Shown: piece after piece, positions 2,729-61,178 of the stretch
How the letters are laid out: each line of letters begins with the position of its first letter
Numbering within the stretch: the first letter of the stretch is position 1
Notes under the pieces: generated by a model
Database searches by the model: none
What the model was told of the DNA's origin: nothing
The model's input: the letters and a program-made list of their open reading frames with translations, nothing else
Made by a program: the position numbers and the translations under genes
Assembly (NCBI GenBank): GCA_900549285.1
Contig: URNW01000001.1
Coordinates: forward strand, 32,252 to 96,251
Direction of reading: 5' to 3'
DNA: 64,000 nucleotides
From: an uncultured Mycoplasmatota bacterium
Lineage (GTDB): Bacteria; Bacillota_I; Bacilli_A; RF39; UBA660

Positions 2729-3163
2729 ATGAATAATAAAATTGCTGAAGATTTAAAAATAGCTATGAAAAATGGTGATAAATTCAAGCTATCAGTTCTA
2801 AGAATGTTAAAAAGTGCTTTACAATTAGATTCTATAAGTAAAAAACATGATCTTAATGATGATGAAGTAATGGCTGTAATTAAAAAGCAAGTAAAAACTC
2901 GTAAAGATTCTATAGAAGAATTTAAAAAATATGGAAAAGACACAGAAATAACTAAATTAGAGCAAGAGATAGAAATTTTAAATGCTTATTTACCAGAAGA
3001 AATGACAGAAGAAGAAATTAATAAAGTCATTGATGAAGTATTTAACAAATTAAATCCTACAGGGATGAAAGATATGGGCGGAGTAATGAAAGAATTAAAT
3101 ACCAAAATTACCAATGCTGATATGTCGCTAGTAAGTAGGATGGTAAAGGAAAGACTAAGTTAG
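2729..3163 (+). CDS. yqeY: GatB/YqeY domain protein.
   Basis: The conserved rpsU-yqeY arrangement of Firmicutes. 144 aa, helical and acidic. Confidence 0.8.
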   Translation: MNNKIAEDLKIAMKNGDKFKLSVLRMLKSALQLDSISKKHDLNDDEVMAVIKKQVKTRKDSIEEFKKYGKDTEITKLEQEIEILNAYLPEEMTEEEINKVIDEVFNKLNPTGMKDMGGVMKELNTKITNADMSLVSRMVKERLS

Positions 3164-3261
3164 TCTTTTTTGTTTAAAAATATTAGAACCACAATAAAGG
3201 GTTAAAAGTTTGAAATTTTATATAAAAATTTCATTTAGGTATTTAAAGAATAATTTTTTTC

Positions 3262-3290
3262 TTGACAAATTCATATAATAAAGATATAAT
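3262..3290 (+). promoter_or_regulatory. Promoter of the infC-rpmI-rplT operon.
   Basis: TTGACA at 3262-3267, 17-nt spacer, TATAAT at 3285-3290. Confidence 0.5.
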
Positions 3291-3449
3291 GTTATAGAAA
3301 TTGAAAAAGGAAAGCGAATTTTATTCCACCTGATGAATAAAGGTTCATAGGTAAAAAGCCATAATAGTTTAATATTAATGAGTTTTTTAAGGTGGAATAG
3401 TATTATTCTACCTTTTTAAATTATATGGAGGTGCGTAAGTATAGCAAGT
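3291..3449 (+). ncRNA. L20-leader-like autoregulatory leader/attenuator of infC-rpmI-rplT.
   Basis: About 160-nt untranslated leader. Long-range complement ATTCCACCT (about 3322) with AGGTGGAAT (about 3391). Hairpin GGTGGAATAGtattATTCTACC followed by TTTTT (about 3391-3418), i.e. a terminator/attenuator just upstream of the infC RBS. Matches the known L20-mediated attenuation architecture in Firmicutes. Confidence 0.5.
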
Positions 3450-3965
3450 GTGAATAAAGAGTTACCAATTAATGAGCAAATCAAAGTAGAAGAACTAATG
3501 GTAATAGGTCCAAATGGAGAACAAATGGGACTAAAAAAAATAGAAGATGCTCTAACTTTATCAAGATATGCGGGTTTAGATTTAGTTTTAATGAATGATA
3601 GTGGCAAAATGGCTGTAGGTAAAATTATGGACTACAATAAATACCGCTATGAACGTCAAAAAAAATTAAAAGAAGCCCAAAAAAAACAAAGAGAAACTAA
3701 TAAAGAATTAAAAGAATATCGTTTATCTACTACAATAGATGTTCACGATTTTGAAACTCGTGTTAGAAATGCAAAAGAGTATTTAATAAAAGGGCATAGA
3801 ATTAAAGCATTTATTCGCTTTAAAGGTCGTCAAATGGCAAGACCTGAATTAGGACGTGATGTTTTACTAAGATTTGCTGAAAGTTTAAGTGATGTTTCAA
3901 GTATAGAGGCAGAACCTAAATTAGATGGTAGACAAATGTTTATGCTATTAGCACCCAAAAAATAG
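3450..3965 (+). CDS. infC: Translation initiation factor IF-3.
   Basis: IF3 N- and C-domain sequence (EQIKVEELMVIGPNGEQMGL..., ...GRQMARPELG...). GTG at 3450. An in-frame ATA at 3441 sits 7 nt after the GGAGGTG RBS and is an alternative atypical start. Confidence 0.9.
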   Translation: MNKELPINEQIKVEELMVIGPNGEQMGLKKIEDALTLSRYAGLDLVLMNDSGKMAVGKIMDYNKYRYERQKKLKEAQKKQRETNKELKEYRLSTTIDVHDFETRVRNAKEYLIKGHRIKAFIRFKGRQMARPELGRDVLLRFAESLSDVSSIEAEPKLDGRQMFMLLAPKK

Positions 3966-36340: not shown

Positions 36341-37108
36341 ATGAAAGAAATATTTGTGTATAGTAGTTTAATTTTTTATTTAAGTTCATTTATTGGCTAT
36401 ATATTAGAAGTATTTTGGTGCTATTTAGGATCTAAAAAATTTGTTAATCGTGGCTTTTTGTGTGGACCTGTAATACCAATTTATGGATTAGGAGCACTTT
36501 TGATATTATTTTGCTTATTAAGATATTATGAAGATCCAGTTGTTGTTTTTGTCTTTGGAGTTATTATTACCAGTGCCCTAGAGTATTTTACATCTTTTAT
36601 TTTAGAAAAAATATTTCATAATAAATGGTGGGATTATAGTAATAGAAAATATAATATTAATGGGCGAATTTGTTTACAAAATTCTTTTGCATTTGGAATT
36701 TTATCACTATTAATAGTATATGCTGTAACCCCTGGATTTTATTTTTTATTCAGTTTATTTAGTTTTAAAGTATGGGAAGTATTAGCCATTATTTTTACAA
36801 TATTCTTTGTGTTAGATGTCATATATTCCGTTATTATAGCTTACAATTTAAGAAATAGAATTATTATTGTTGAAGAACTAAAAAATGAAAAGATTGCCAT
36901 GATTCCAATTATCTTTGAAAAAAGATTAAAAGAAAGTATAGAAGGCTTTAAAGCTTTTCCAAGCAGACTTTTAAAAGCTTTCCCAAACCTTGATAATAAT
37001 GTTTTTGAAATGATGAAAAAATATCGTGAAGAAAATAAATTAAAAAGAAAAGAATTTAAGAAACATCAAAAATTAAAAGGCAAAAGAAAAAAGATAGCTA
37101 AAAATTAG
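36341..37108 (+). CDS. DUF1113-type polytopic membrane protein (putative ABC-transporter type IV).
   Basis: Conserved GPVIPIYGLGA motif. Multiple TM segments. Paralog of 49320-49976. Confidence 0.55.
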   Translation: MKEIFVYSSLIFYLSSFIGYILEVFWCYLGSKKFVNRGFLCGPVIPIYGLGALLILFCLLRYYEDPVVVFVFGVIITSALEYFTSFILEKIFHNKWWDYSNRKYNINGRICLQNSFAFGILSLLIVYAVTPGFYFLFSLFSFKVWEVLAIIFTIFFVLDVIYSVIIAYNLRNRIIIVEELKNEKIAMIPIIFEKRLKESIEGFKAFPSRLLKAFPNLDNNVFEMMKKYREENKLKRKEFKKHQKLKGKRKKIAKN

Positions 37109-37326
37109 TTATCTTTTTCAAATACGATCTTTATATTATGCTTTTTACATATTTCTAAAATAGTCTCATAATAAAACCTAGAATTACCAGTTTCAATCTC
37201 TTTAATACCATGACGGCTTTTTCTATTTAATTCTTTAGCAAGTTCGTCTTGAGTTAATCCCGTCCATTCTCTTAATATCTTAAAAGTTTCATGTGGCTCA
37301 TAGTTATTTGCCAATAGTCGCATCAT
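37105..37326 (-). CDS. XRE-family HTH regulator.
   Basis: GLTQDELAKEL HTH. Divergent from the 37503 gene. Confidence 0.75.
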   Translation of the reverse strand: MMRLLANNYEPHETFKILREWTGLTQDELAKELNRKSRHGIKEIETGNSRFYYETILEICKKHNIKIVFEKDN

Positions 37327-37385
37327 AAGTTATACCTCCTAAATCAAGGTTACTATAAAAAAACTTAAAATTATCATAAAGGTGG

Positions 37386-37444
37386 TTGACAACTACCTTT
37401 TGGTGTGATAAATTATATTTAATATAAGGTAGCTATTATCTACC
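37386..37444 (+). promoter_or_regulatory. Promoter of the 37503 gene, with palindromic operators.
   Basis: TTGACA, 17-nt spacer, TGaTAAATT. Near-palindrome GGTGGTTGACAACTACC overlaps the -35. Inverted repeat GGTAG-ctattat-CTACC at 37428-37444. Confidence 0.4.
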
Positions 37445-37502
37445 ATTATAAATATTTATTTATTAAAGTAAATGAAGCATAACATCACAAAGGAGAGTAA
37501 CT

Positions 37503-39191
37503 ATGGAATTTGAGGTATTAAAAAGAAGTCATTTAAAAAGAAATATGGTGATTGTATTACTAGTCGTAGCAATAATTAGTGCAATAGTACTTAATTTTAC
37601 TAGAGCAAAATACAAAACAGAAGAGTCTATTCCCCTAATAAATGGCACAATTAACTATAAAATACCAGACTTTAACACTTTAGCTATATATATTGAGGAT
37701 AGTAATAATAATTATATTTCTACAAATGAAGTACCAAGTGATGGATATGATTTCAATCAAGAAAAAAGCTATTGTACAACAAATAATAAAACGGATACAT
37801 CAATCCAAATAGAATATTTAAATGGGTTAATTTCGTTAAGTAATATTAATAAACGTACCAAGTGTTATTTTTATTTTAATTTACAAGAAAACGCTACAAA
37901 CTTAAAAGATAAGATAATAGCAAATAATGGTGGCAAAGAAAAATTAGAAACAAATATAATAAAAGACTTTTCTGTCATTGCACCTAGAACAATAAAAACT
38001 GTAGATGAAGGAACAAAAGAAAGCAGCGTATTTAGTACAGACGCTACTATAATAACTTACCTTGCATATGCAGATAGCTATGATTTTAATGAAGAAACGG
38101 GATTATACAGTTTAAATGACCCAATAATAAGCTCCTATCAAGAAGCATATAATAAAATAAAAGGAAAATATATATCAACACCATATTATACAAGTGAAAC
38201 ATCAACGAATATTCCAACAAATAATTTAGAACAAGTATATGAAGTAACAGATACTAATTCTAAATTAATATATATGAAAGAATCCGTAAAAACTCAAATT
38301 TCTGATATGAATGACAAAGGATTATACAAAACAAGTGATAGTTATGGGACAAGTTATTATTTTAGAGGTGCCGTAGATAATAATTGGCTATATTTTGCAG
38401 GATTTTACTGGCGAATTATCAGAATTAATGGAGATGGATCAATTAGACTGATATATACTGGAAAAAAAGGGGAAGTAATTCCCGCTAATGCTCCTGTTTC
38501 ATATCGAAATATCAATACTGTATTAAACAATAGTAATAACTATCCATACACAATGTATACGAATCAAGCAGAATATGTGGGATATATGTATGAATTAGGA
38601 TTATCTCATGGTGTAAAATATGATAGTTTTATCAAAAGTATAGTAGATGCATGGTATAAAAATAACTTAAAAAATTATACATCATATTTAGCAGATAATG
38701 GATTTTGCAATGATAGAAGTAGTGTAGTTTTAGGAAGTGTAACAACACCAGCAGAAGCAATAGGAACTAATCAAGTAGATTTTAATCCGTTGATTAGAAA
38801 TTATATTAATAAAAATCCAAGTTTAAAATGTTCCAATAAAGAAGATAATTTTACTGTTCAAGATATTCAAAATGGAAATGGTGCTTTAACATATCCAATA
38901 GGATTAATTACAATTGATGAAGTAGCCTATGCGGGAGCGGTATATGAAAAAGTAAATCACAATAATTATTTAACTAATGCAGTAAATTATTGGACAATGA
39001 GCCCGTTTAATAGTGGAAATGGCAAATATAAAATGAGTAATATGAATGTAGCTTGGAATGGTATGATAGCATCAGATCAATCAAATAATGCCAATGGTGG
39101 CATAAGACCAGTTATTAGTTTAAAATCAACTGTAAAAGCAATTGGCAATGGTACTTCTTCAAACCCTTATGTTGTTATTAGTACAGAATAA
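37503..39191 (+). CDS. N-terminally anchored extracellular protein of unknown function (562 aa). Paralog of 59874-61178.
   Basis: Signal-anchor N-terminus. Shares with its paralog the N-terminal 130 aa, the block FAGFYWRIIRINGDG..RLIY, and the C-terminal PIGLI..DEVAYAG...WTMSP...GIRPVI.L.S.V.I..GNGTS..PY motifs. Confidence 0.6.
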   Translation: MEFEVLKRSHLKRNMVIVLLVVAIISAIVLNFTRAKYKTEESIPLINGTINYKIPDFNTLAIYIEDSNNNYISTNEVPSDGYDFNQEKSYCTTNNKTDTSIQIEYLNGLISLSNINKRTKCYFYFNLQENATNLKDKIIANNGGKEKLETNIIKDFSVIAPRTIKTVDEGTKESSVFSTDATIITYLAYADSYDFNEETGLYSLNDPIISSYQEAYNKIKGKYISTPYYTSETSTNIPTNNLEQVYEVTDTNSKLIYMKESVKTQISDMNDKGLYKTSDSYGTSYYFRGAVDNNWLYFAGFYWRIIRINGDGSIRLIYTGKKGEVIPANAPVSYRNINTVLNNSNNYPYTMYTNQAEYVGYMYELGLSHGVKYDSFIKSIVDAWYKNNLKNYTSYLADNGFCNDRSSVVLGSVTTPAEAIGTNQVDFNPLIRNYINKNPSLKCSNKEDNFTVQDIQNGNGALTYPIGLITIDEVAYAGAVYEKVNHNNYLTNAVNYWTMSPFNSGNGKYKMSNMNVAWNGMIASDQSNNANGGIRPVISLKSTVKAIGNGTSSNPYVVISTE

Positions 39192-39214
39192 AGATTTTTC
39201 TTTAATCTTTTTTC
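39190..39214 (+). terminator. Rho-independent terminator.
   Basis: AAAGATT-tttcttt-AATCTTT followed by TTT. Confidence 0.5.
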
Positions 39215-58004: not shown

Positions 58005-58187
58005 CTAATTGTTATTACTCCAGCTCCATCCAGCGCCAATAATAATAACAAGTAAAATAAATAAGACGATCCATATAGCGGCTCCTATACCATAGCCACT
58101 TGTATATCCAGCATATCCTGTATTACAACAAGGTTGGTATCCACCATAGCCACCGCCATAGTAGCCATTATTTCCATAATAATACAT
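58005..58187 (-). CDS. YjcZ-like Gly/Tyr-rich small membrane peptide (sporulation-associated family).
   Basis: MYYYGNNGYYGGGYGGY... then the TM segment IWIVLFILLVIIIGA, as in YjcZ-family peptides. A terminator hairpin AGGAAGA-aagt-TCTTCCT lies downstream on the minus strand (57989-58006). Confidence 0.5.
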   Translation of the reverse strand: MYYYGNNGYYGGGYGGYQPCCNTGYAGYTSGYGIGAAIWIVLFILLVIIIGAGWSWSNNN

Positions 58188-59482: not shown

Positions 59483-59512
59483 AAATCGTAAAAATAAATT
59501 ACGATTTTTTTC
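59482..59512. terminator. Bidirectional terminator.
   Basis: AAAATCGTAA-aaataaa-TTACGATTTT followed by TTT. Confidence 0.6.
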
Positions 59513-59729
59513 TTGGATATGGTTTTCTTTCATCTGTTAAATCTAGAAGATAATCAACACTAGTATTATAAAATAAGGCTAGTTTAATTAAAGAATTTTT
59601 GTCAATACTTATTTCTCCGCTTTCATAGCGAGAATATGTTTGCTGACTGACATTTAAAATTTTAGCAATGTCTTTTTGAAACAAATCTCTATCTTCTCTG
59701 ATATCTTTAAGTTTTTCCATAACTATCAC
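59499..59729 (-). CDS. XRE-family HTH regulator.
   Basis: FQKDIAKILNVSQQTYSRYESG HTH. Divergent from the 59874 gene. Confidence 0.75.
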   Translation of the reverse strand: MIVMEKLKDIREDRDLFQKDIAKILNVSQQTYSRYESGEISIDKNSLIKLALFYNTSVDYLLDLTDERKPYPRKKS

Positions 59730-59763
59730 CGATTGTAATTTTACAATATTCGTAAAAAGTGTA

Positions 59764-59792
59764 TTGACTTATACGCGTAATATGCGTATAAT
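59764..59792 (+). promoter_or_regulatory. Promoter of the 59874 gene, with a palindromic operator.
   Basis: TTGACT, 17-nt spacer, TATAAT. Inverted repeat TATACGC-gtaatat-GCGTATA (59770-59790) spans the spacer and -10. A second inverted repeat ATACAC-gttataa-GTGTAT lies just downstream. Confidence 0.45.
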
Positions 59793-59873
59793 ATTATTAA
59801 AATACACGTTATAAGTGTATAAAATAATAAAAAATAATTAAATGAAGCATAGCGTCATGTTAGGAGAAATAAT

Positions 59874-61178
59874 ATGGAAATAGAAACTTTAAAGAAAAGC
59901 CATTTAAAAAGAAATATTGTAATAGCTGTGGTAGTAGTAGCAATTATTAGTGCAATAGTACTTAATTTTACAAGGGCAAAATATAAAAATACAGAGTCAA
60001 TACCACTAGTAAATGGAACAATTAACTATACACCATATGATTTAAAAATGGTTGCTATGTATCAAGAAGAAAATGGAGATTATAAAAGTATAGATACAGT
60101 ACCAACTAGTGGATATACTTTAAATGAAGAGAAAAGCTATTGTGAGGTAAATGATGCAAAAGATGACAACATATCTATGGAATATAAAGATGGTAAAGTA
60201 TATATAGGAGTAAGTAAAAAAGGAACAAAATGTTATTTGTATTTTGATATACAAAATCAATATTTAGTAAAGGAATATCTTCTATCTAAATATCAAACAA
60301 TTTTAGCAAGAAATGATTTTAATGTAGCTTTAACTGAAAATACAACAGGAATAATTTATCAAGGTGAAGATAATGATGGGCAAACATACTATTTTGCAGG
60401 TAATCCCACTGATAATTGGGTCAAATTTGCAGGATTTTACTGGAGAATTATAAGAATCAATGGAGACGGAACGCTAAGACTAATATATAACGGAATAAAT
60501 GCGGACGCTACAGGTGATAACACTTCGATAAAATTAGGTTCGTTTAATAACGATCGCACAAATAATATGTATGTTGGCTATAAATATACCAATAATGAAA
60601 TTCATGGTTTAAATTATGAGAGTACAATACTTATAGCATTAAATGAATGGTATCAAACAAATTTACAAAGTTATTCAGCGTATATTGATATTAATGCTGG
60701 TTTTTGTGGAGATCGGGAACCAAGTACAAACAATACAATCAGTAATGGTTCAGGAGGAACAGGAACAACAAATACTTATTATGCGTCATATATTAGATTA
60801 GTTGCTAATAAAAACCCAACATATAAGTGTAAAAGTAATGATTTATATACCACAAGTAAGAGTAATAAGGGAAATAAATCTTTATCTAATCCCATAGGAT
60901 TAATTAGTGCAGATGAAGTAGCCTATGCGGGTGGCTCAAGCAGTATATCAAATAACAATTACTTTCTTTTTTCGAAAGGCTCATATTGGACCATGTCGCC
61001 ATATTTTTTCTATAATAATGGAGCATATGTATTTTATGTTGATTGGTATACAGGTAAATTAGCCTATTTTTCTGTTAGTTCCAGTGCAGTGGGTATACGC
61101 CCAGTTATTAATCTAGCTAGTGATGTAACAATAAAAAGTGGGAATGGAACATCTAAAACACCGTATGAGATTAGTTAA
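59874..61178 (+). CDS. N-terminally anchored extracellular protein of unknown function (434 aa). Paralog of 37503-39191.
   Basis: See 37503-39191. Same N-terminus (M.IE.LK.SHLKRN..I.....AIISAIVLNFTRAKYK..ESIPL.NGTINY) and the same internal and C-terminal motifs. Confidence 0.6.
   Translation: MEIETLKKSHLKRNIVIAVVVVAIISAIVLNFTRAKYKNTESIPLVNGTINYTPYDLKMVAMYQEENGDYKSIDTVPTSGYTLNEEKSYCEVNDAKDDNISMEYKDGKVYIGVSKKGTKCYLYFDIQNQYLVKEYLLSKYQTILARNDFNVALTENTTGIIYQGEDNDGQTYYFAGNPTDNWVKFAGFYWRIIRINGDGTLRLIYNGINADATGDNTSIKLGSFNNDRTNNMYVGYKYTNNEIHGLNYESTILIALNEWYQTNLQSYSAYIDINAGFCGDREPSTNNTISNGSGGTGTTNTYYASYIRLVANKNPTYKCKSNDLYTTSKSNKGNKSLSNPIGLISADEVAYAGGSSSISNNNYFLFSKGSYWTMSPYFFYNNGAYVFYVDWYTGKLAYFSVSSSAVGIRPVINLASDVTIKSGNGTSKTPYEIS

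Follow-up and report, generated by a model that had tools for sequence, protein, structure and literature searches.

Large paralogous families of fast-evolving exported proteins are known from reduced-genome, host-associated relatives of Bacilli, as exemplified by the Vsp and Vlp proteins of Mycoplasma. These Mollicutes families consist of lipoproteins, and they switch via DNA inversion or repeat slippage. SinR, an XRE protein of Bacillus subtilis, represses the genes of secreted matrix proteins. DUF6273 domains are common in the receptor-binding proteins of gut phages (PMC10743442). In the IgA peptidase IgAse, the N-terminal DUF6273 domain is described as lacking tethering disulfides and having a structural zinc site; it is dispensable for catalysis, and its own function is not known (PMC12237041).

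The 64-kb stretch of DNA analyzed here (the window) contains two loci at which a gene for a large protein diverges from a gene for a small XRE protein (Table 1). On balance, it seems likely that each locus is a self-contained two-gene cassette, in which a repressor controls a rapidly diversifying, exported, lectin-like binding protein.

Table 1. The two cassettes and their parts, in window positions and, for the large proteins, in residues.
Feature	Position	Strand	Residues	Remarks
XRE-family HTH gene, cassette 1	37105..37326	-		73 aa, short class A; Pfam
Operator-like palindrome O1, cassette 1, AAGGTGGttgacaaCTACCTT	37379..37399	.		over -35 hexamer; candidate XRE site
Sigma-70-type promoter, large gene 1, TTGACA-17-TAAATT with upstream TG	37386..37414	+		consensus match only, 10/12
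Operator-like palindrome O2, cassette 1, AAGGTAGctattatCTACCat	37426..37446	.		perfect core 37428-37444; inside transcribed leader
Family-specific 5′ leader box, copy 1, AAATGAAGCATAACATCA	37470..37487	+		31 nt ahead of start codon
Large protein, copy 1	37503..39191	+	562 aa	paralog of copy 2 (BLASTP)
Copy 1 leader			aa 1-57	
Copy 1 beta-sandwich			aa 58-127	
Copy 1 lineage-specific segment	37887-38321		aa 129-273	
Copy 1 C-type-lectin-like domain	38322-39188		aa 274-562	
XRE-family HTH gene, cassette 2	59499..59720	-		73 aa from ATG, short class B, C-terminal LTDERKPYP tail; Pfam
Sigma-70-type promoter, large gene 2, TTGACT-17-TATAAT	59764..59792	+		consensus match only, 11/12
Operator-like palindrome O1, cassette 2, ATACGCgtaatatGCGTAT	59771..59789	.		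fills promoter spacer, overlaps -10; candidate XRE site
Operator-like palindrome O2, cassette 2, TACACgttataaGTGTA, TACAC-N7-GTGTA	59803..59819	.		inside transcribed leader
Family-specific 5′ leader box, copy 2, AAATGAAGCATAGCGTCA	59840..59857	+		32 nt ahead of start codon
Large protein, copy 2	59874..61178	+	434 aa	paralog of copy 1 (BLASTP)
Copy 2 leader			aa 1-57	
Copy 2 beta-sandwich			aa 58-126	
Copy 2 C-type-lectin-like domain	60351-61175		aa 160-434	
Most variable segment of the family, copy 2	61002..61094	+	aa 377-407	between WTMSP and GIRPVI

The two large proteins are paralogs, as the original prediction held. Their pairwise BLASTP alignment is significant over two blocks, which join aa 1-128 of copy 1 to aa 1-127 of copy 2 (57% identity, E 7e-34) and aa 274-558 to aa 161-433 (40% identity, E 2e-51). 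All of the shared motifs quoted for them are found in both proteins, and tblastn detected no third copy of the large gene in the window. The description of the first ~50 residues as near-identical was too strong, the first 52 residues being only ~79% identical. At the DNA level the 5′ ends of the two genes are ~80% identical, with 60 to 65% identity at third codon positions, and their similarity is therefore one of protein-level conservation and not of recent gene conversion, a source that we considered and rejected. Third positions are conserved at codons 6-14, but A/T-ending codons such as these are preferred in a genome of 26% GC, and their conservation is no clear sign of RNA-level constraint. 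Copy 1 does have an extra segment close to the ~150 aa proposed (145 aa); it is not a plain insertion, however, as it replaces a 33-aa linker. Only the homologs P0136 and P0137 have the segment, which is matched weakly in P0221, and its fold cannot be read because the AF2 pLDDT is below 50 over aa 158-268. The AF2 model of copy 2 has a mean pLDDT of 83.

Each large protein has exactly four cysteines, all in invariant columns and forming two conserved pairs. The predicted order of parts is a conserved N-terminal leader, a small beta-sandwich with one cysteine pair, and a C-type-lectin-like domain of ~270 aa with the second pair. A basic tail (K7, K/R8, K12, R13), a single hydrophobic helix (aa 12-36 in the model) and a conserved juxtamembrane segment, NFTRAKY, make up the leader, and within that segment T-R-A↓K-Y agrees, by inspection, with the -3/-1 cleavage rule. 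Such a leader would serve as a signal-anchor or, if it is cleaved, as a signal peptide; the large proteins are predicted to be exported and, as had been proposed, may be anchored in the membrane. In homologs the N-terminal 127 aa are always N-terminal and are fused also to ALK/LTK glycine-rich, PT-HINT and Big/fn3 domains, and they appear to be an export module that is joined to various extracellular-type domains.

The large proteins had been described as belonging to an unknown family. This is correct insofar as both lie below all Pfam and NCBIfam thresholds: scans of Pfam, NCBIfam, PHROGs and PADLOC returned nothing significant for them, a profile search of PDB sequences gave a chance match only, and neither matches PF19789 (DUF6273; gathering score 23.5 bits), even at E <= 1. 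It needs qualification for the C-terminal domain, whose fold is that of an enlarged C-type lectin and falls in the DUF6273 superfamily. The domain resembles a solved DUF6273 domain in three dimensions, its best structural relative being the N-terminal domain of the IgA peptidase (PDB 9qa6), and phage DUF6273 proteins match it with an E value of 2e-5 (BFVD). PF19789 matches 20 of the 43 close homologs at E <= 0.01 (best 1.6e-5), with coverage of only about the last 50 of the 172 model positions. The C-terminal domain is better placed on a divergent branch of the DUF6273 superfamily than within the Pfam family itself.

This fold favors a binding or adhesin-type role. The EPN, QPD and WND motifs for Ca2+ and sugar in canonical C-type lectins are absent from the large proteins, and the ligand therefore need not be carbohydrate. 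Column entropy among the 43 homologs is highest at aa 377-407 of copy 2, which, by analogy with the DUF6273 targets of diversity-generating retroelements (DGRs), may contact the ligand. It is improbable that the C-terminal domain is instead an enzyme, with for example a formylglycine-generating-enzyme-like or sulfoxide-synthase-like fold, that acts on a cell-envelope or host substrate and does not serve as a binding module. The suggestion that the large protein is a toxin finds nothing in its favor; no toxin or defense family in Pfam, NCBIfam or PADLOC matches either large protein.

The divergent gene of each cassette encodes an XRE-type HTH protein with Pfam HTH matches above the cut-off, as predicted. 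The cassette 2 protein matches HTH_3 (PF01381) at 53.5 bits with a cut-off of 23, and the cassette 1 protein marginally matches HTH_31 (PF13560; 28.5 bits, cut-off 27) and HTH_3 (24.1 bits, cut-off 23); Pfam finds no domain besides the HTH in these short XREs. Orthologs of the cassette 1 XRE at loci L005 and L072 are 90 to 92% identical to it, and the ortholog of the cassette 2 XRE at locus L010 is 83 to 84% identical; the cassette 2 XRE gene is annotated as 73 aa at locus L001. Among 77 informative family genes from other genomes, 61 lie within 450 bp of a divergently oriented XRE gene. Across the family the conserved leader has XRE partners from at least four unrelated classes, and some loci have no XRE. 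Paralogs with the tandem double-HTH class of XRE have a promoter/operator region in common, and for this reason a scheme of one private repressor per gene fails for the family as a whole.

Both large genes had been credited with a consensus promoter overlaid by a perfect inverted repeat. The promoter hexamers are present, but they are consensus matches in AT-rich DNA, where a scan returns about as many matches as in shuffled sequence. The perfect repeat of cassette 1, GGTAG-N7-CTACC, is not over the promoter but 14 bp past the -10 hexamer, and it is an imperfect copy, AAGGTGG-N7-CTACCTT, with arms that are 91% complementary, that covers the -35 hexamer; the two have half-sites in common. Cassette 2 has a second palindrome too, and in each cassette the two palindromes are related to one another and cassette-specific. 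GGTAg/GTACC-type palindromes occur at L072 and L005 where O2 of cassette 1 sits, and GATACGCataataaGTGTATC occurs at L010 where O2 of cassette 2 sits. XREs that are 79 to 92% identical have half-sites in common and those that are 37 to 57% identical do not: operators co-vary with XRE type. We infer from these patterns that each XRE would bind its own O1 and O2 palindromes.

The same gene pairing could be read as a transmembrane signaling pair, the large protein being a sensor whose extracellular lectin-like domain detects a ligand and which signals through the conserved tail and helix to the XRE, for example by sequestering it, with the XRE as output and more than just a repressor of the large gene. 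Conservation of the pairing would agree with this, as would the leader, whose cytoplasmic tail, helix and juxtamembrane segment rank with the WRIIRINGDG core as the best-conserved parts of the large protein. However, the tail, at only ~14 residues, looks like a signal peptide's basic n-region, the leader also stands on proteins with other C-terminal domains, its XRE partners are of unrelated classes or missing altogether, and the short XREs offer nothing beyond the HTH. We give a signaling pair little credence.

If the divergent XRE is, as we prefer, the repressor of its cassette, its dimer would bind two copies of the cognate palindrome, one overlapping the near-consensus promoter core and the other 30 to 50 bp downstream in the leader. 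Both sites together would silence the large gene until an unspecified signal removes the repressor, and the tight repression and inducibility originally suggested may be understood in this way. The XRE gene could be autoregulated through this binding as well, the promoter-proximal palindrome being ~45 bp upstream of its likely start site.

A third control element would be the box that stands at a fixed distance ahead of the start codon. The 18-nt motif predicted for the 5′ leaders is found exactly at its two expected places (Table 1) and nowhere else in the window. We built a covariance model from 32 upstream regions of the family, and with it the two window boxes score 39 and 37 bits and the next-best window site 18. 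The general pattern is AAATGAAG-N5-CTTCAT, about 17 to 18 nt long and ~32 nt ahead of the start codon; it is present in 38 of 87 family upstream regions, at -31 to -36, and 29 of its 34 matches in 582 kb are upstream of family genes. The box is specific to the large-protein family and is common to cassettes with unrelated operators. The predicted architecture of regulator, operator and untranslated leader around an exported protein is thus conserved, with XRE pairing that is widespread, half-sites that track the XRE and a box that is family-wide. As to what the box does, the two window copies form no stable hairpin (a weak one in copy 1) and only 1 of 7 box pairs covaries across the family, so that a role in RNA structure stays putative. 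Neither intergenic region matched an Rfam family credibly, even with a cut-off of E <= 10. An upstream ORF in the box was considered and rejected, since a frame opening with ATG AAG meets a stop at codon 3 in many loci and lacks a ribosome-binding site. We know of no fit to the consensus sites of cre, Rex, LexA, Fur or FNR/Crp. The box is probably either a means of family-wide control at the mRNA level or a site for a shared factor.

The family to which the two large proteins belong has thousands of members in uncultured gut Bacilli and appears to be uncharacterized. Each search found between 5270 and 7900 proteins at E <= 0.001 among the 8000 candidates scored; species-representative genomes contain at least 576 family loci, 5 to 10 per genome among the best 80, and overall a genome has 5 to 10 or more copies. 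Sister species carry the cassettes at corresponding chromosomal positions. For two such orthologous loci, L005 and L010, identity is 83 to 92% in the flanking genes and the XRE but only 38 to 50% in the large protein, which therefore diverges rapidly at orthologous loci.

These positions also bear on the idea that the cassettes are remnants of prophages or mobile elements, each with a CI-like repressor and a gene resembling that of a receptor-binding protein. The XRE proteins do match phage repressor PHROGs, and the phage association of DUF6273 noted above points the same way. Nevertheless, no phage genes flank the cassettes, whose neighbors are lepA, a hemW-like gene, def, a SEDS gene and spoVB, their places in the chromosome are identical between sister species, and the large proteins carry a cellular export leader and have no significant PHROG match. 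An origin of this kind is very unlikely. It is hardly plausible that the genes form a toxin-antitoxin or anti-phage defense pair of an XRE antitoxin and a membrane effector: the XREs show weak similarity to antitoxin HTH models and to PADLOC HTH components, but the genes are divergent and not co-transcribed, and so form no co-directional type II operon, PADLOC has no match for the large proteins, most of each large protein is predicted to be extracellular, and the many copies per genome sit at core chromosomal positions. The notion that the large proteins are DGR targets like the phage DUF6273 proteins, with which they have the superfamily and a most variable segment near the C-terminus in common, can be dismissed for this window. 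Its 64 kb contain neither a template-repeat-like copy of one or the other C-terminal region nor the motif pattern of a DGR-type reverse transcriptase, and the few variants seen within species do not cluster in the variable segment.

The favored reading is then that of a repressor-controlled cassette whose lectin-like domain would bind a ligand, either on display at the cell surface or after release from it. A more far-reaching version, which we advance only tentatively and think rather unlikely, is that the cassettes across the genome together encode a repertoire of lectin-like surface proteins that evolve fast, the short-XRE cassettes each with a cognate repressor and operator and all passing through the shared leader-box checkpoint. 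If true, uncultured gut Bacilli would possess a surface-variation or niche-sensing system based on transcription factors and not on DNA rearrangement, by which the cell alters its binding or display toward host IgA, mucus, phages or neighbors. The carriers are gut Bacilli that are abundant and uncultured and have reduced genomes; their contact with the host, phages and other cells is almost undescribed, and thousands of exported lectin-like proteins that diverge far faster than the neighboring genes are a strong candidate for that interface. Because the system is compact, with a 73-aa repressor, two operators of ~20 bp, a strong promoter and a short box, the regulatory hypothesis lends itself to direct testing in a heterologous host, and orthogonal repressor/operator pairs could be drawn from the short-XRE cassettes.

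Among described systems, the cassettes are like the SinR and lambda CI switches in having a small XRE HTH protein, paired palindromes at or near a strong promoter, and divergent genes. Unlike those switches, they show no antirepressor gene equivalent to SinI or Cro, and the unit, of which a genome has many copies, controls a single lectin-like gene instead of an operon or a phage. The DUF6273 domain of IgAse (ThomasA) of Thomasclavelia ramosa is N-terminal to a metallopeptidase in a sortase-anchored protein, whereas that of the window family is C-terminal, has no catalytic partner and differs in its two invariant cysteine pairs. As the role of this closest solved relative is itself not known, studies of the IgAse domain and of the window family could inform each other. 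The gut-phage DUF6273 proteins (tentaclins, Mtd-like DGR targets) are of the same fold superfamily as the window family (PMC10743442), and the variable segment near the C-terminal end of the domain is a further likeness. The phage proteins are virion proteins diversified by a retroelement, in contrast to the window family, which is chromosomal, has an export leader and is not accompanied by a DGR in the window; its diversity is between paralogs and species and not within strains. Like the Vsp and Vlp families of Mollicutes, the window family is a large paralogous set of exported, fast-evolving proteins, but in place of a repeat or invertase signature, of which it has none, dedicated transcription factors appear to be in control.

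Both cassettes, in a window of 26.5% GC, are set among ordinary chromosomal genes. Cassette 1 is flanked by lepA and the gene of a 255-aa predicted membrane protein, recognized as such by sequence inspection and without a match in a family search; cassette 2 is flanked by def, a SEDS gene (FtsW/RodA-type) and a gene for an SpoVB-like flippase. The large proteins, copy 1 (562 aa) and copy 2 (434 aa), are true paralogs as originally predicted, with 57% identity over the N-terminal 128 residues of copy 1 and 40% over the C-terminal ~285 residues, and a sequence search found no third copy in the 64-kb window. The reported insertion of ~150 aa in copy 1 is a real extra segment, but it consists of 145 aa standing in place of a 33-aa linker of copy 2. 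This segment occurs only in P0136 and P0137, homologs of 57-60% identity, with a weak match in P0221, and is modeled with pLDDT below 50. A family profile search bore out that both small divergent genes encode XRE-type HTH proteins, XRE1 and XRE2, which are only 21% identical. Where each XRE gene and its upstream neighbor converge, an AT-rich hairpin with A and T runs on either side lies exactly between the two 3' ends; these hairpins are probably bidirectional terminators insulating the cassettes. An ORF between def and the SEDS gene, likewise annotated in contig L001 of the same species, encodes a Gly/Tyr-rich protein of 60 aa with a hydrophobic helix at its C-terminus (MYYYGNNGYYGGGYGGYQPCC...). 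It has no match in NCBIfam, and we take it to resemble the very small YjcZ-type membrane proteins associated with sporulation.

Positions of features in the window, in the copy 2 model and in related loci
Feature	Location	Position	Strand	Description
AT-rich hairpin, cassette 1	window	37087-37118
AT-rich hairpin, cassette 2	window	59483-59510
Putative XRE1 start-site element	window	near 37351-37356	reverse	TATAGT, by inspection
Putative XRE2 start-site element	window	near 59738-59746	reverse	TGTAAAAT, by inspection
Cassette 1 O1 palindrome	window	37379-37399		AAGGTGG-N7-CTACCTT, over -35
Cassette 1 O2 palindrome	window	37426-37446		AAGGTAG-N7-CTACC, just downstream of -10
Cassette 2 O1 palindrome	window	59771-59789		ATACGC-N7-GCGTAT, in promoter spacer
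Cassette 2 O2 palindrome	window	59803-59819		TACAC-N7-GTGTA, in leader
Copy 1 extra segment	window	37887-38321		aa 129-273
60-aa protein ORF	window	58005-58187	-
Helix	copy 2 model	aa 12-36
Conserved segment	copy 2 model	aa 37-57		low confidence, highly conserved
Small beta-sandwich	copy 2 model	aa 58-126
Large alpha/beta domain	copy 2 model	aa 160-434
Partner gene	L033	4911-6683
Partner gene	L043	5293-7482
Partner gene	L048	3386-5197
Partner gene	L061	3365-5152
Partner gene	L075	3359-5068
Extra 266-aa gene	L010	about 2782-3582

Promoters, inverted repeats and the 18-nt leader motif lie where the original prediction placed them, but each cassette carries two related palindromes (O1 and O2) rather than one. 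Each short-XRE cassette of the family has the same layout: a strong promoter, one palindrome within or overlapping it and, 30-50 bp further downstream, a second copy. Half-sites are common to XREs that are 79-92% identical and unrelated between XREs that are 37-57% identical, the signature expected of cognate repressor-operator pairs. A scan with one genome per species recovered at least 576 family loci; the 80 best-scoring belong to uncultured gut Bacilli, among them 'Mycoplasma sp. CAG:776', Candidatus Caccenecus and numerous MAGs, with 5-10 loci per genome counted within those 80 alone. A divergent XRE gene lies within 450 bp of 61 of 77 family genes that have enough upstream sequence, second-in-tandem genes being left out. 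Among the XREs, several classes have a single HTH domain and a length of 71-111 aa, both window types included; a further class of 143-192 aa (about 150 aa) has two HTH domains in tandem, the second much more conserved than the first. The tandem-HTH class has a promoter/operator region (TTGACT..TCTAGCT..TATAAT..AGCTAGGAAACT..ATCATA-N-TATGAT) common to paralogs even within one genome, so from their sequences these cassettes are probably co-regulated rather than privately controlled. This region is near-identical across paralogs and genomes in L004, L054, L066, L011, L031, L009, L028, L053, L079, L052 and L042; its shared element, TTGACTTTTTgTCTAGCT-N8-TATAATTTAACTATAAGCTAGGAAACT followed by ATCATA-N-TATGAT, lies about 60-125 nt upstream of family start codons.

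A second regulatory class of family genes (e.g. upstream sites in L016 about 3939, L030 about 1970, L034 about 707) is without leader box and mostly without XRE, with a few exceptions in which an XRE is present, such as L002, L025, L026, L048 and L075. The perfect Spo0A-box heptamer TGTCGAA is present in 21 of 86 upstream regions (~1 expected by chance). In most of these it lies some 62 to 67 nt before the start (about -62 to -67), within a conserved promoter, TTGACAAGTTTTGTCGAA..ATGAAA..TGnTATCAT, which suggests that part of the family is tied to Spo0A or sporulation entry.

The leader motif is indeed at both window sites, and recurs across the family as AAATGAAG-N5-CTTCAT; 38 of 87 upstream regions have it 31-36 nt ahead of the start codon, irrespective of XRE class. 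The pattern occurs 34 times in 582 kb of related loci, and 29 of these occurrences are at that position upstream of family genes; within the window only the two cassette sites score with a covariance model. The box keeps a constant spacing to the start codon whereas its spacing to the promoter varies, which points to a role on the mRNA. There is little evidence for an RNA structure: most positions do not vary at all, a single pair shows covariation (UA/CG/UG; nine double changes, with a score reached by 15 of 500 shuffles), and the hairpin is weak or absent in both window copies. No Rfam family matched the box, and an upstream ORF was rejected as its identity. A simple stabilizing hairpin and a shared protein that recognizes the sequence, in RNA or in DNA, are equally likely explanations of the box.

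Both large proteins fall below every threshold in Pfam, NCBIfam, PHROGs and PADLOC. To that extent they belong to no recognized family, as first proposed, but homologs do reach PF19789 (DUF6273), which is found at the extreme C-terminus of some relatives and whose model is matched by 20 of 43 close homologs, always only over its last ~50 positions. Two homology searches, each scoring 8000 candidates, gave 5270 and 7900 relatives with E <= 0.001. The AlphaFold2 model of copy 2, built with 43 homologs, has a mean pLDDT of 83. The IgA peptidase domain annotated as DUF6273 (PMC12402451) is described as an enlarged C-type-lectin-like domain that catalysis does not require and that has no known function (PMC12237041); in gut phages, DUF6273 domains serve in receptor binding and are diversified by retroelements (PMC10743442; bioRxiv 10.1101/2024.10.15.618418). 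The classical sugar-binding motifs EPN, QPD and WND are absent from both window proteins. Both contain exactly four cysteines, in alignment columns that do not vary among homologs, which would fit two extracellular disulfides in each. In some genomes a family gene is directly followed by a 570-730-aa relative; in four of five such partners the N-terminus is TasA/SipW-type-like (..GVSFAYFT..) in place of the NFTRAKY leader, and the L043 partner has a different leader.

Residues 1-57 are among the most conserved of the large protein, and DNA comparison attributes this conservation to selection on the protein, ruling out recent gene conversion. An exhaustive search with residues 1-127 returned 410 clusters, all with the module at the N-terminus. 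The lectin-like domain is carried by 63 of 80 full-length representatives, and others have ALK/LTK glycine-rich, pretoxin-HINT, Big/fn3 or GLUG elements. Fusions of leader and beta-sandwich to other C-terminal domains are seen in P0283, P0299, P0357, P0315 and P0269, with ALK/LTK glycine-rich (E 1e-37) and pretoxin-HINT matches and weaker Big/fn3 and GLUG matches. Always N-terminal and joined to various C-terminal domains, the module looks like a general export and presentation device. By inspection its leader, with a basic n-region, a 16-residue h-region and T-R-A|K-Y, fits a Gram-positive signal peptide, and is a candidate for one that is either cleaved or anchoring.

At the orthologous loci in sister species, identity to the window is 87% for the membrane protein, 90% for XRE1 and 90% for lepA (L005, cassette 1), and 87% for def, 89% for the SEDS gene, 83% for XRE2 and 86% for spoVB (L010, cassette 2), but only 38-50% for the large proteins. 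The cassettes are thus passed on at fixed chromosomal positions, while divergence or replacement of the lectin-like gene runs far ahead of that of all its surroundings, its own repressor included. The L005 large protein is without the copy 1 segment; L010 has an extra gene, missing in the window, between its SEDS and XRE genes. Variability among homologs peaks at aa 377-407, between WTMSP and GIRPVI and close to the C-terminal end of the domain, the region in which diversity-generating retroelements (DGRs) of phages diversify DUF6273, and in this the proteins are like phage targets. However, the window holds no template repeat or DGR-type reverse-transcriptase pattern, and variants within the species are few and scattered, so retroelement mutagenesis is not the cause here. 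The rival readings (a DGR target, a sensor/relay pair, an enzyme, a phage remnant, a toxin-antitoxin or defense pair) are, even taken together, less likely than not.

We consider it fairly probable that each cassette specifies a repressor-controlled, exported, variable lectin-like protein with leader-box control, and we infer the cassette function as follows. An XRE dimer would sit on O1 and O2, blocking the strong promoter of the large gene; once repression is lifted, the protein would be exported and its variable lectin-like surface exposed, with the leader box as a common control step added across cassettes. Neither the small XRE repressors nor the DUF6273 lectin-like fold is new. The papers that a literature search found to mention DUF6273 do not describe a branch of the superfamily that is chromosomal and bears an export leader, nor that this branch has multiplied to many cassettes per genome, nor a conserved repressor/two-operator/leader-box architecture. 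By inspection O1 is centered ~45 bp upstream of the likeliest XRE start sites, so the same binding could autoregulate the XRE gene, as the repressor does in CI-type switches.
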